Shown here piece after piece: positions 5,933 through 7,554 of a stretch of DNA of 64,000 nt. Position 1 is the first letter of the stretch; every line of letters begins with the position of its first letter. This DNA comes from Gammaproteobacteria bacterium (GTDB lineage Bacteria > Pseudomonadota > Gammaproteobacteria > JBIOEC01): the NCBI GenBank assembly GCA_965279305.1, contig OZ257143.1, positions 1,157,994-1,221,993 on the forward strand. The letters run 5' to 3'. A model generated the notes under the pieces. That model made no database searches. It was given only the letters and a program-made list of their open reading frames with translations, and was not told the DNA's origin. A program made the position numbers and the translations under genes.

Positions 5933-7453
5933 GTGTCATTAGATCCTAAGCAGCGCACTCAAGAACTATCTACCCTGTTAGGGGATTACCATTTGGCTCA
6001 TCATGCTGAATTGGCTTTGCCTATCACTGGTTTGGCTACCGATAGCCGAACCCTTAAAAAAGGCGAGCTTTTTTTAGCCTATCCTGGTGAAAGCAGCGAT
6101 GGCAGACATTATATTGCTGATGCTATTTCAAAAGAGGCCAGCGCTGTTTTATATGAGCCTTCTTATCAAACCACTGAACACACTACTTCAGTTCCTTTAA
6201 TTCCGTTTCCACAGCTGCGCGATCAAATTGGTGCTTTGGCGGCTAGGTGGTTTGATTATCCTACCCGTCATATGGATATTTATGGAATTACAGGCACTAA
6301 TGGAAAAACGTCGTGCTCTCATTATTTAGCACAAGCTTTAGCTTTATTAAAAAAACGCTGTGCGGTATTAGGCACTATTGGTGCTGGATTTCCTGAAGAT
6401 TTAGTGAGTAGTGCATTAACCACGCCCTGTGCCTTAGAAGTGCAGAGTTTGGCAGCAGAGTTGTTACATAAAGGCGCTGATTCTTTAGCCATGGAAGTAT
6501 CTTCGCACGCCTTAATTCAAGGCCGTGTGAATAGTGTTTCTTTTAAAACTGCTATTTTTACTAATTTAACTCAAGATCATTTAGATTATCATCGCACGAT
6601 GGAAGCCTATGGTGCTGCTAAAGCGCAGCTTTTTTATTGGTCTAGTTTACAGAATGCTATTATTAATGTGGATGATGCTTTTGGTTTAGCATTATTTAAT
6701 CAGCTAAAATCTCAACAAGGGATCAATGTATTTGCCTATGGTATTGCTTCTGAGCATGAGATCCCTGCGGAACAATGGGTAAGAGCTGACATAATAAAAG
6801 AAGATAAAAATGGCTTACAAGCTAAACTATATACGCCATGGGGTGATGGATTATTGTCTATTCCGCTTTTAGGAAAATTTAATTTATATAATGTATTAGC
6901 GGTATTGTCTGCTTTATTAGCAGATAAAAATTTAGCTGTGGATTTAAAAAAATTATTAAAGATTACTCCTTTATTAAAACCAGTTCCAGGACGTATGCAG
7001 TGTTTTGGTGGTGGAGATAAACCTTTGGTGATAGTGGATTACGCGCATACACCCGATGCTTTAAAAAAGGTGCTCTTAACCTTGCGTGATTATCATGCAG
7101 ATCAATTATGGTGTGTATTTGGCTGTGGTGGCGATAGAGATCCGGCTAAGCGCCCTATCATGGGGCAGATTGCGGCTGAATATAGCGATAAGGTGATAGT
7201 GACGAATGATAATCCTAGAACAGAAGATCCTAAAAAAATTGTGCACCATATTATGCAAGGCATATCTTCTGGTAAGTCTGTCGAGGTAGAATATGACCGA
7301 AAACAGGCCATTATGGAAACAGTGAAAAAAGCGAAGGCCGGAGATGTGGTGTTGGTGGCAGGGAAGGGGCATGAGGATTATCAGATTTTGGGTGAGGAAA
7401 GGGTGCATTTTTCTGATGCGGAGATCGTGAAACAATCACTGGGCTTGGTGTGA
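5933..7453 (+). CDS. murE: UDP-N-acetylmuramoyl-L-alanyl-D-glutamate--2,6-diaminopimelate ligase MurE
   Basis: GTGTNGKTS P-loop and the Mur ligase fold. GTG start. The last 11 bp, including the stop codon, lie inside repeat copy 2. Confidence 0.9.
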   Translation: MSLDPKQRTQELSTLLGDYHLAHHAELALPITGLATDSRTLKKGELFLAYPGESSDGRHYIADAISKEASAVLYEPSYQTTEHTTSVPLIPFPQLRDQIGALAARWFDYPTRHMDIYGITGTNGKTSCSHYLAQALALLKKRCAVLGTIGAGFPEDLVSSALTTPCALEVQSLAAELLHKGADSLAMEVSSHALIQGRVNSVSFKTAIFTNLTQDHLDYHRTMEAYGAAKAQLFYWSSLQNAIINVDDAFGLALFNQLKSQQGINVFAYGIASEHEIPAEQWVRADIIKEDKNGLQAKLYTPWGDGLLSIPLLGKFNLYNVLAVLSALLADKNLAVDLKKLLKITPLLKPVPGRMQCFGGGDKPLVIVDYAHTPDALKKVLLTLRDYHADQLWCVFGCGGDRDPAKRPIMGQIAAEYSDKVIVTNDNPRTEDPKKIVHHIMQGISSGKSVEVEYDRKQAIMETVKKAKAGDVVLVAGKGHEDYQILGEERVHFSDAEIVKQSLGLV

Positions 7454-7554
7454 AGGTATGTGTTTAGGCAAGACGCCGTGAATACATCCTTGTAGGCTCG
7501 GACGCGGCATCCCTGCCGCGTACGCTTGCCTAAATACATACCTTCACACCAAGC
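7443..7554. repeat. REP/MITE-like palindromic element, copy 2 (between murE and murF)
   Basis: 30-bp inverted arms (gcttggtgtgaaggtatgtgtttaggcaag / cttgcctaaatacataccttcacaccaagc, 1 mismatch) flank the conserved core acgccgtgaatacatccttgtaggctcggacgcggcatccctgccgcgtacg. Confidence 0.85.

Follow-up and report, generated by a model that had tools for sequence, protein, structure and literature searches.

The murE-murF junction and its palindromic element

The window, the whole 64,000-nucleotide stretch of DNA analysed here, contains murE, encoding UDP-MurNAc-tripeptide synthetase, at 5933..7453 on the plus strand, and murF at 7608..8942 on the same strand; Mur ligase domains are present in the orthologous downstream gene. 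The two genes are 154 nt apart, and the first-pass annotation had placed a near-perfect hairpin of about 112 bp between them. We confirmed this hairpin, which spans 112 bp with arms at 7443-7472 and 7525-7554, each of 30 nt, 97% complementary to one another and separated by 52 nt. The only position of the stem that is not a Watson-Crick pair is a G·U, on the plus strand. RNA of the plus strand has a predicted folding energy of -80.1 kcal/mol against -35.5 ± 3.7 for shuffled sequences (z = -12.2), and 0 of 200 shuffles folded as well. The mRNA strand also folds better than the opposite strand, for which -73.4 kcal/mol was obtained.

Direct reading of the sequence shows murE ending in GGC TTG GTG TGA at 7442-7453. 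P1, the long closing stem, has its left arm at 7443..7472 (plus strand), beginning with the second base of this Gly codon. The arm therefore covers the last 11 nt of the 5933..7453 reading frame including the stop codon at 7451-7453, as had been claimed from the initial inspection. Positions 7443-7453 thus double as the murE end, G-L-V-stop, an assignment drawing on sequence, pairing, fold and model match. The right arm of P1 (7525..7554, plus strand) contains TCACACCAAGC, the mirror image of the murE end, and murF starts 53 nt 3' of it. Two small hairpins on the minus strand fill the space between the arms. Core hairpin 2 (7473..7498), with the sequence GAGCC-UAC-AAGGAU-GUA-UUCAC-GGCG(U), combines a stem of 3+3 bp and a 5-nt bulge with a hexaloop that contains GGA (complement TCC at 7487-7489). 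Core hairpin 1 (7499..7524) reads CGUACGCGGC-AGGGAU-GCCGCGUCCG and has its GGA loop (complement TCC at 7510-7512) on a variable stem of about 10 bp, in which a single mismatch is conserved. Inspection of the flanking sequence revealed no obvious direct repeat around the element.

The hairpin had also been called the second copy of a repeat, and three copies are indeed present in the window, at 1220-1330, 7443-7554 and 43340-43454. All are intergenic or at gene ends, are 111-115 bp long and have a core of about 54 nt in common, and their arms are complementary within each copy and unalike between copies. The distances to the adjacent stop codon are -11, 31 and 102 nt. Copy 1 (1220..1330, minus strand, with its own arms, 85.5 bits in the family model described below) ends 19 nt 5' of the probable start of a ttcA-like gene, and, for the minus-strand genes on either side, its GGA strand is the sense strand. 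Copy 3 (43340..43454, minus strand, also with its own arms, 92.9 bits) lies between a gene of unassigned function and the proA start, with the GGA strand sense to both neighbours. At gathering thresholds, a search of the window with Rfam returned RNase P only.

A dispersed repeat with a conserved core and free arms

YPAL (Yersinia palindromic sequences), also termed RU-2, was reportedly first described in Yersinia by De Gregorio et al. in 2006 (J Bacteriol 188:7876). The core of the window copies can be aligned, one base to one base, with the RU-2/YPAL sequence published for Y. pestis CO92 (PMC2759123 Table 1b), the homology being restricted to this core. A covariance model of the family, built from 75 members, gave 86-103 bits for the three window copies (103 for the murE-murF copy) and 75 bits for a Yersinia YPAL copy. 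A literature search with sequence words of the element matched unrelated primers only.

Two Rfam families were compared with the element. Ysr224 (RF02770) is listed there as a Yersinia sRNA described as temperature-responsive (PMC9029176). Its threshold of 70 bits is exceeded by copies of the element from Pectobacterium and Acerihabitans (101 and 81 bits), and the murE-murF copy scored 36.7 bits on the plus strand, below that threshold. Of one enterobacterial YPAL copy, the Ysr224 model spans just the core and the left arm, and it stops inside the element. It resembles a piece of a transcript that contains the repeat. Against TwoAYGGAY (RF01731) the murE-murF copy scored 33.0 bits on the minus strand, with a gathering threshold of 43 that none of 18 other element loci reached. 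Much of this score stems from the long stem, because generic miRNA-hairpin models score similarly. The loops of the family follow A-[G/U/A]-GGA-[U/C/A], with AUGGAU in about one third of the copies; the murE-murF copy has AGGGAU and AAGGAU together with the long P1. Homology of the element to TwoAYGGAY is plausible. YPAL/RU-2 and Ysr224 appear to be views of one structured repeat, to which the gammaproteobacterial TwoAYGGAY members probably belong as well.

Across the 75 copies, all 24 closing-stem pairs tested and 7 of 9 hairpin-1 pairs change on both sides, and paired cells in the alignment amount to 87.5% compared with 36-43% when the partners are slid. The inner stem of hairpin 2 covaries around a fixed loop in copies that were found without the search pattern, and the loops of hairpin 1, which were not part of that pattern, nearly always contain GGA. 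Mismatches in the arms are strongly asymmetric: on the strand opposite the GGA strand A:C occurs 132 times and G:T 25 times (p = 9e-19), which places the wobble pairs on the GGA strand. Likewise, non-canonical hairpin pairs on the GGA strand are G·A rather than C·U (24 vs 0, and 43 vs 5). The wobble bias is strand-specific in every gene context and does not flip with context. These patterns identify the GGA strand as the structurally selected strand of the family. At murE-murF this strand is antisense to both genes, and the dcw mRNA carries the complement UCC. We know of no published account that explains this clear, strand-specific sign of single-strand folding.

The core is present at more than 120 loci across Gammaproteobacteria. 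The family model gave 132 matches at 100 loci, which often had several each, and other genomes contain 2-5 copies per 8 kb. With genes called by crude ORF heuristics, the median distance was 75 nt to the adjacent stop codon versus 140 nt to the start (p = 0.009). No copy was found in 5,426 E. coli genomes, and among plasmids and phage-like records Yersinia plasmids were the only match. The ends of the copies vary and conserved terminal repeats are absent. A link between orientation and transcription was rejected, as 18 copies in tandem gene contexts are sense and 21 antisense and the wobble bias is independent of context; a link to replication was rejected for want of any relation to GC skew (51 of 107 loci). 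Mobility of the element in the window genome would follow from what is seen in other genomes: several copies of one genome have near-identical arms in a JAWLHA MAG, in Lysobacter (L061) and in L125, a relative discussed below. At one further locus (L020), four units follow one another in tandem within 1.2 kb of non-coding DNA, with no GacA/UvrY box found upstream of the array.

Two mechanistic ideas about the origin of copies were discarded. A REPtron-like arrangement around a transposase does not fit, because the ORFs between paired copies are HigBA-like, aroA and other housekeeping genes. Copying of the arms from the target as an inverted target duplication was likewise rejected; the arms lack self-complementarity, and in the close relative L127 the left arm of the murE-murF copy is orthologous. 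One copy in L125 has perfect arms of 43 bp, the only remaining hint of target-copied arms.

The junction in relatives and a putative effect on dcw expression

The first-pass annotation had further proposed that the element supplies the C-terminus and stop codon of MurE. The last three codons and the TGA lie within the stem, and comparison with relatives supports the proposal. The element is absent from three of them (L122, L123 and L124; 57-61% MurE identity), in which the murE-murF gaps are 10, 18 and 15 nt, so the 154-nt gap is unusual for the lineage. In L121 (66% MurE identity), an element with unrelated arms sits at the orthologous position and the 3' flank is conserved. The copy in L127 (96% MurE identity) is broken, and murE there stays open for 13 codons across the left arm until it ends at a TGA in the conserved core. 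In L125 a separate copy lies directly 3' of the murE stop codon, with arms nearly identical to those of a second copy on the same contig. By this comparison, the murE-murF copy probably predates the split from the 66%-identity relative, the L125 insertion was acquired independently, and an intact hairpin is dispensable, as it is destroyed in L127 and missing from L122, L123 and L124. Two or three lineages carry an element at this junction, each time in one orientation, and this may be a sign of selection for what the element does to dcw rather than of tolerance.

No terminator-like site was found in 7000-8000 and no promoter-like site between the element and murF. The stem is followed by UUGCCAUAAAUUAAUUU and has no U-tract; given this and the absence of a promoter-like site before murF, the hairpin is predicted not to be an efficient terminator. 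In the predicted fold the murF Shine-Dalgarno sequence is unpaired. The position inside the operon and the lack of promoter- and terminator-like sites suggest that the element is co-transcribed with the dcw genes. For YPAL elements, the literature describes locations near stop codons, co-transcription and a possible stabilising effect on upstream mRNA (PMC2229807; PMC3733652). The best reading of the hairpin is a co-transcribed MITE-like repeat with a putative generic effect on mRNA decay. The earlier suggestion that the stem alters the balance of upstream and downstream genes fits the reviews on Yersinia YPAL (PMC2229807) in this general form and does not hold as a dcw-specific device, the element being a dispersed repeat that also lies beside unrelated genes. 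It is not a purpose-built dcw switch, because palindromic repeats of its family are widespread and usually lie directly behind stop codons.

We consider it likely that the murE-murF hairpin belongs to the YPAL/RU-2 superfamily as a dispersed structured repeat of MITE-like type, and that it is tolerated, transcribed through and at most a barrier to decay. Such a copy would consist of the conserved core of about 54 nt, with two small GGA-loop hairpins at a three-way junction, closed by a stem of 24-45 bp whose sequence is free as long as it pairs. Copies would settle in intergenic DNA in either orientation, preferably just 3' of stop codons, and one presumably entered the murE-murF spacer in the ancestor common to the 66%-identity relative. 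Because the final 11 nt of murE belong to its stem, element sequence encodes the last three residues together with the stop codon. The dcw mRNA would carry the strand opposite to the structurally selected one, still as a very stable stem-loop, and transcription probably passes through it. At most, the element may act as a generic decay barrier or processing site favouring the upstream mraZ-murE portion, as reported for Yersinia YPAL, and it is probably tolerated rather than required.

A dedicated regulator of the dcw operon would have its stem selected for termination, attenuation, RNase III cleavage or translational uncoupling, setting the stoichiometry of ftsI/murE versus murF-ftsZ. Retention of the orthologous position at 66% MurE identity with a stem fully re-paired by compensatory change would suit such a device, as would the independent, identically oriented insertion in L125 and the single G·U on the better-folding mRNA strand. 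A perfect 30-bp RNA duplex suffices in length for RNase III. The stem at murE-murF is of that length, and a precedent exists in Correia/NEMIS (cited in PMC3733652). Nevertheless, we regard this explanation as quite improbable, since the same element lies beside unrelated genes in the window and at more than 100 other loci, the hairpin is broken in a 96%-identical relative and missing from three others, U-tract and downstream promoter-like site are both lacking, and the fold is not predicted to sequester the murF Shine-Dalgarno sequence. It is more improbable still that a small RNA gene of the Ysr224 type lies between murE and murF by chance. Its Rfam listing and the plus-strand match speak for it, but the match is below threshold, there is no promoter-like or terminator-like site, the model covers a fragment of the repeat only, and the region must be transcribed within the operon anyway.

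The remaining two explanations concern the GGA strand. As a CsrA/RsmA-binding module, the core would offer two GGA loops to a CsrA dimer, and copies in sense orientation are predicted to recruit or titrate the protein. Both loops keep A-N-GGA-N, and hairpin 2, (C/G)UACA(G/U)GGA(U/C)GUA, matches RUACARGGAUGU, the consensus that Dubey is said to have obtained by SELEX with CsrA in 2005. Consistent with such a module are also the near-invariant GGA in hairpin 1, the fixed loop on a covarying hairpin-2 stem, the wobble and G·A pairs on the GGA strand, and the tandem array in L020. Furthermore, TwoAYGGAY has been predicted to bind CsrA (PMC4333381), and a CsrA motif has been defined as paired GGA hairpins (PMC4383904). 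On the other hand, orientation relative to neighbouring genes is about random, no promoter is conserved beside the element, the L020 array lacks a GacA-type box, and no literature linking YPAL with CsrA was found. Copies 1 and 3 carry both GGA loops on the transcribed strand; the murE-murF copy does not, and the mechanism would not act on the dcw mRNA because the GGA strand there is antisense to the operon. We therefore judge CsrA binding unlikely as the explanation. The csrA gene is absent from the window, which is uninformative. Somewhat less doubtful is a selfish element that moves via a single-stranded (DNA or RNA) GGA-strand intermediate, with a putative enzyme reading the folded core instead of terminal sequences; in that case active master copies would have passed on the strand bias, and the murE-murF copy would be an inert relic. 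The wobble bias in every gene context, the near-identical arms within genomes and the variable ends agree with this, as do the target duplications of variable length (3-26 bp) and the targets at dyad symmetries described for YPAL in reviews (PMC2229807). However, neither a transposase nor another enzyme was found in association with the copies, paired copies enclose housekeeping or toxin-antitoxin genes, and unlike IS200/IS605-type elements the copies show no relation to GC skew. A core kept at a fixed orthologous locus over deep divergence is also hard to reconcile with an inert relic unless it is converted by other copies.

Relation to known repeats and RNAs

If the tolerated-repeat reading is correct, the idea of a bespoke dcw attenuator gives way to a documented class of co-transcribed repeats, and the murE-murF copy shows cleanly, in nature, how a repeat can provide a protein with its C-terminus and stop codon. 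The repeat is spread over many gammaproteobacterial orders and has an unusual design that combines a conserved centre with free arms. For annotation, matches to the Ysr224 "sRNA" would be copies of the repeat. A testable CsrA hypothesis also arises from the family. In its broadest and rather speculative form, YPAL, Ysr224 and gammaproteobacterial TwoAYGGAY would be one ancient superfamily, with an invariant two-site GGA-loop module on a three-way junction as a putative ligand for CsrA/RsmA or another GGA-loop reader, and the GGA strand selected as a single strand at hundreds of loci per genome. In that event, the repeats would, throughout the Gammaproteobacteria, spread or buffer a post-transcriptional regulator of global reach, and the long stem would be a sequence-free scaffold kept by compensatory change.

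The closest known system is YPAL/RU-2, with which the element shares the homologous core with two GGA-loop hairpins, the long stem-loop fold and locations close 3' of stop codons. YPAL/RU-2 occurs as tens of intergenic copies per genome, and the element may be similarly numerous, with three copies in the 64 kb of the window. Occasional fusion with the 3' end of an ORF is a further likeness, reported for RU-2/YPAL by Delihas 2007 (PMC2759123). In contrast to the Yersinia elements of about 167-168 bp, the window copies measure 111-115 bp; their arms are unrelated to Yersinia or Pectobacterium arms and vary between copies within one genome, and their host is a distant low-GC gammaproteobacterium, neither Yersinia nor Pectobacterium. 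Because of the length and the unrelated arms, we file the window copies under the wider superfamily and not under strict YPAL. To our knowledge, no RAYT or other transposase partner is known for this type of element.

REP/BIME, ERIC/IRU and Correia/NEMIS are likewise small, intergenic, co-transcribed palindromic repeats forming stable hairpins that alter mRNA decay or are cut by RNase (PMC3733652; PMC2229807). They differ in that their arms or terminal repeats are conserved, whereas YPAL-type elements conserve the centre and leave the arms free. The classic case of a stem within an operon that sets the stoichiometry of upstream and downstream genes is the REP between malE and malF. On the GGA strand the architecture resembles that of TwoAYGGAY (RF01731, Weinberg et al. 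2010), in which the closing stem is long and of variable sequence ("often very large, e.g. 24 bp") and encloses two hairpins; the loops of both can be written A-Y/R-GGA-Y. Stems with G·A pairs and several copies per genome in some Gammaproteobacteria (Psychromonas) are further likenesses, although outside the loops sequence similarity is weak. The 3' two thirds of the Ysr224 model correspond to the element core on the TCC strand, but the model describes one locus-specific transcript fragment and does not cover the whole hairpin. Finally, CsrA-sequestering RNAs of the CsrB/RsmY/RsmZ type also present paired GGA motifs in hairpin loops (PMC4383904), whereas YPAL-type elements are dispersed single modules of random orientation, with no promoter or terminator of their own and with putative CsrA binding.

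Structure of the element between murE and murF and its other copies

The element at 7443-7554 consists of two 30-nt arms, 97% complementary and 52 nt apart; all positions form Watson-Crick pairs except one, a G·U as read on the + strand. For the + strand RNA, the predicted fold has an energy of -80.1 kcal/mol versus -35.5 ± 3.7 for shuffled sequences (z = -12.2), in line with the near-perfect hairpin described in the first-pass annotation. This mRNA strand folds slightly better than its complement (-73.4 kcal/mol), which is called here the GGA strand after the sequence of its core hairpin loops and is antisense to the operon at this site; the opposite strand is the TCC strand. 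Direct reading of 7442-7453 as GGC TTG GTG TGA places the last 11 nt of murE (5933..7453, +), including the stop codon, in the left arm, as had been proposed. The Shine-Dalgarno sequence of murF (7608..8942, +) is unpaired in the predicted fold, and neither a U-tract nor promoter-like sites were found when searched for between the element and murF. Both here (7570-7600) and in the relative L121 (L121:3555-3600), the stretch from the element to the murF Shine-Dalgarno sequence holds a conserved small C-rich/G-rich hairpin, CACCUCACC-UUUUU-GAGGGGAG, which may be native to the spacer.

The window contains three copies of identical strand polarity (1220-1330, 7443-7554 and 43340-43454), and a model search with filters off detected no fourth. 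A centre of ~54 nt is common to all three, with copies 1 and 3 being 93% identical there. Arm similarity from copy to copy is only ~50% over 30-32 nt, against 90-97% complementarity within each pair.

A mechanically called minus-strand ORF (396..1268) begins within copy 1 (window 1199-1330) and encodes a TtcA-like protein (KLQKRLRR...CLSGGKDS). Translation probably begins at the ATG at 1201-1199, 19 nt past the element; copy 1 would then belong to the leader of the ttcA-like gene and carry its GGA loops in sense. Copy 3 takes up most of the 191 nt (43302-43492) that separate proA from a 434-aa gene of unknown function; its GGA strand is sense to both neighbours, and its pairing reaches ~41 bp with the flanks counted. 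The window also carries a tandem duplication at 45546-48934 (period ~1.73 kb, two units 70-91% identical, repeat families D1-D8), a perfect tandem duplication of 36 nt at 1490-1561 within the minus-strand ORF 1433..2056, and a gene for bacterial class A RNase P RNA at 27746-28116 (311 bits). GC skew on the + strand is strongly positive over all 64 kb (0.05-0.19), in which the three copies share one polarity; 107 other loci showed no such association.

The murE-murF junction in relatives

The first-pass annotation had suggested comparing the MurE C-terminus and this junction with genomes lacking the element. Besides the genome's own, the nearest MurE sequences are 96%, 66%, 61%, 60%, 58% and 57% identical. 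Three relatives (L122, L123 and L124; MurE 57-61%) have no element at murE-murF, with gaps of 10, 18 and 15 nt. In L121 (66%) an element is present at the orthologous position, ~5 nt past the TAA and in the same orientation; its 3' flank can be aligned to the window and its core is near-identical, and the arms are completely different but complementary. In L125 (58-59%) a copy in the same orientation begins directly after the murE TAG. Its arms are nearly identical to those of another copy that this contig carries between rsmH and ftsL, which indicates that the post-murE copy is an independent, more recent insertion. The rsmH-ftsL copy (L125:268-401) has perfectly complementary 43-nt arms, of which only the inner ~28 nt are common to the two copies; the outer 15-17 bp are particular to their locus and nevertheless palindromic, which may bear on how arms arise.

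In the closest relative, L127 (96%), the left arm survives together with ~22 nt from the start of the core. Its spacer (L127:4552-4703) is 152 nt versus 154 nt in the window, and the right two thirds now hold different hairpins, with 15-nt arms at 4595/4626 and 11-nt arms at 4564/4670; neither the left-arm complement nor any model match above 10 bits was found in this spacer. The L127 MurE ends in ...ALGLSGEGKHFAKTP, with 13 codons running through the arm to a stop that is the TGA of the core's GTGAATAC. The final ~20 nt of this murE are far more diverged than the remainder of the gene.

The ends of murE in L127 and the window thus bear out the claim that, in this lineage, the end of MurE and its stop codon come from element sequence. 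An analogous case is the extension of ECA4072 by 4 residues by RU-2 (Delihas, PMC2759123). The three element-encoded MurE residues are unlikely to matter, since the tail past the conserved FSDxE(V/I)V..L comprises 0-9 residues in relatives and is not conserved. The reading of the hairpin as a dcw feature held only in part: the MurE end does come from the element, but the states of the junction in relatives show that the intact hairpin is dispensable, and the element belongs to a repeat family at no fewer than 120 loci.

A repeat family with a conserved centre and a strand bias

The family was scanned with an exact pattern of 19 specified core bases, which occurs in at least 120 loci; among the matches listed, all are from Gammaproteobacteria or unclassified Pseudomonadota, including Stenotrophomonas, Lysobacter, Marinobacter, Microbulbifer, Methylotuvimicrobium, Ectothiorhodospira, Shewanella, Pectobacterium, Acerihabitans and a Legionellales MAG. 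Twenty or more arm positions are paired in 95 of 118 extracted copies (median 29). Alignment on the GGA-carrying strand of 75 copies picked for at least 24 paired arm positions led us to propose a fold with a long closing stem, P1, and two hairpins. Hairpin 1 has a variable stem of ~10 bp and hairpin 2 has 3+3 bp with a UUCAC bulge, each with the loop A-N-GGA-N. In these copies, pre-selected for arm pairing, two-sided changes occur in all 24 P1 pairs and in 7 of 9 hairpin-1 pairs; 87.5% of alignment cells pair versus 36-43% with partners slid, and none of 500 shuffles reached the observed score. A covariance model built from the alignment gave 132 matches in 100 loci, 29 of them without the search pattern. 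Among these pattern-free matches, hairpin 2 shows covariation of its inner stem (UAC/GUA, CCC/GGG, CAC/GUG, CUC/GAG, AAC/GUU) around a constant GGA loop, so both small hairpins are real and the loops are the invariant part. The family is spread across Gammaproteobacteria with a conserved centre and free arms.

The model matches include a second subfamily in which hairpin 2 is CCC-AGGGAU-GGG instead of UAC-AGGGAU-GUA (L033, L049, L003, L072, L089, L080, L050). CCC-type copies often lie 150-250 nt from a UAC-type copy in inverted orientation, resembling BIME clusters. An uncultured Saccharophagus MAG carries four tandem units with a period of ~180 nt (L020:3090-3760), each with an element on one strand and with A7-GGGA-U7 as hairpin 1, within a 1.2-kb non-coding stretch that a hairpin resembling a bidirectional terminator closes near 3885-3925. 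Either a CsrB-like multi-GGA RNA or no more than tandem amplification could account for the array; a search for a GacA box upstream of it found none.

Non-Watson-Crick arm positions on the TCC strand of 95 copies are A:C in 132 cases versus G:T in 25 (binomial p = 9e-19), which places the wobble pairs on the GGA strand, and the bias persists with neighbouring genes sense or antisense. Counted on the GGA strand, G·A is also commoner than C·U, both at the closing position of hairpin 2 (24 versus 0) and in hairpin 1 (43 versus 5). Element orientation is related neither to GC skew (51/107 loci) nor to gene direction (18 versus 21 in tandem contexts). A bias in both arms and hairpins, with orientation unrelated to skew and genes, argues that selection acts on the GGA strand as a single strand, irrespective of local transcription. 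Published accounts hold no explanation for this strand-specific signature, and two can be put forward. A factor reading the GGA loops might be responsible, with CsrA/RsmA as the obvious candidate given its motif definition (PMC4383904) and the CsrA binding predicted for the Rfam family TwoAYGGAY (PMC4333381). Alternatively, the bias could stem from a strand-specific single-stranded intermediate during the element's spread.

Relation to YPAL/RU-2 and possible effects on the dcw mRNA

Rfam at gathering thresholds gave no match at the murE-murF element. Below threshold, the + strand scored 36.7 bits with Ysr224 (RF02770; threshold 70) and the minus strand 33 bits with TwoAYGGAY (RF01731; threshold 43), with both GGA loops in register; the latter score is a lead only, since generic miRNA-hairpin models score the element similarly. 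Copies from Pectobacterium odoriferum (101 bits) and Acerihabitans (81 bits) pass the Ysr224 threshold, and a Y. pseudotuberculosis copy of the Yersinia palindromic sequence (YPAL, or RU-2) scores 75 bits with the covariance model. The decisive link, at the sequence level, is the 168-nt Y. pestis RU-2, printed with ...aaagcgtccgcgccaaggatggcgcggctcgagcctacatggatgtatttacggcgtcttt... (Delihas 2007, PMC2759123): aaagcgtccgcgccaaggatggcgcggctcgagcctacatggatgtatttacggcgtcttt is the element core on the GGA strand, and alignment agrees. The murE-murF element is a divergent member of this known kind of repeat; the family appears to be equivalent to Ysr224 and is likely linked to TwoAYGGAY. The element was found in 0 of 5,426 E. 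coli genomes and, among plasmids, only in those of Yersinia.

The element would be transcribed as part of the dcw mRNA, and it probably terminates inefficiently, because the downstream genes are essential and no promoter-like site that could serve them lies close by. If it has an effect at all, it would act as any stable 3' stem does, by shielding upstream mRNA against 3'-5' decay or by being cut by RNase III. YPALs are reportedly found closely downstream of stop codons, and YPAL-positive transcripts are said to reach higher levels. YPALs are ~168 bp long, contain internal inverted repeats and have target duplications that vary from 3 to 26 bp; their targets are at or near dyad symmetries, they have recently been mobile between Y. 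pestis and Y. pseudotuberculosis, and they are made together with upstream genes and may affect how stable the upstream transcripts are (PMC2229807). They number 37-144 in most Yersinia species (PMC2847712), and 101 model matches with a conserved stem-loop were reported for Y. pestis (PMC2267715). Decay protection and RNase III cutting are effects reported for YPAL, ERIC, REP and Correia elements.
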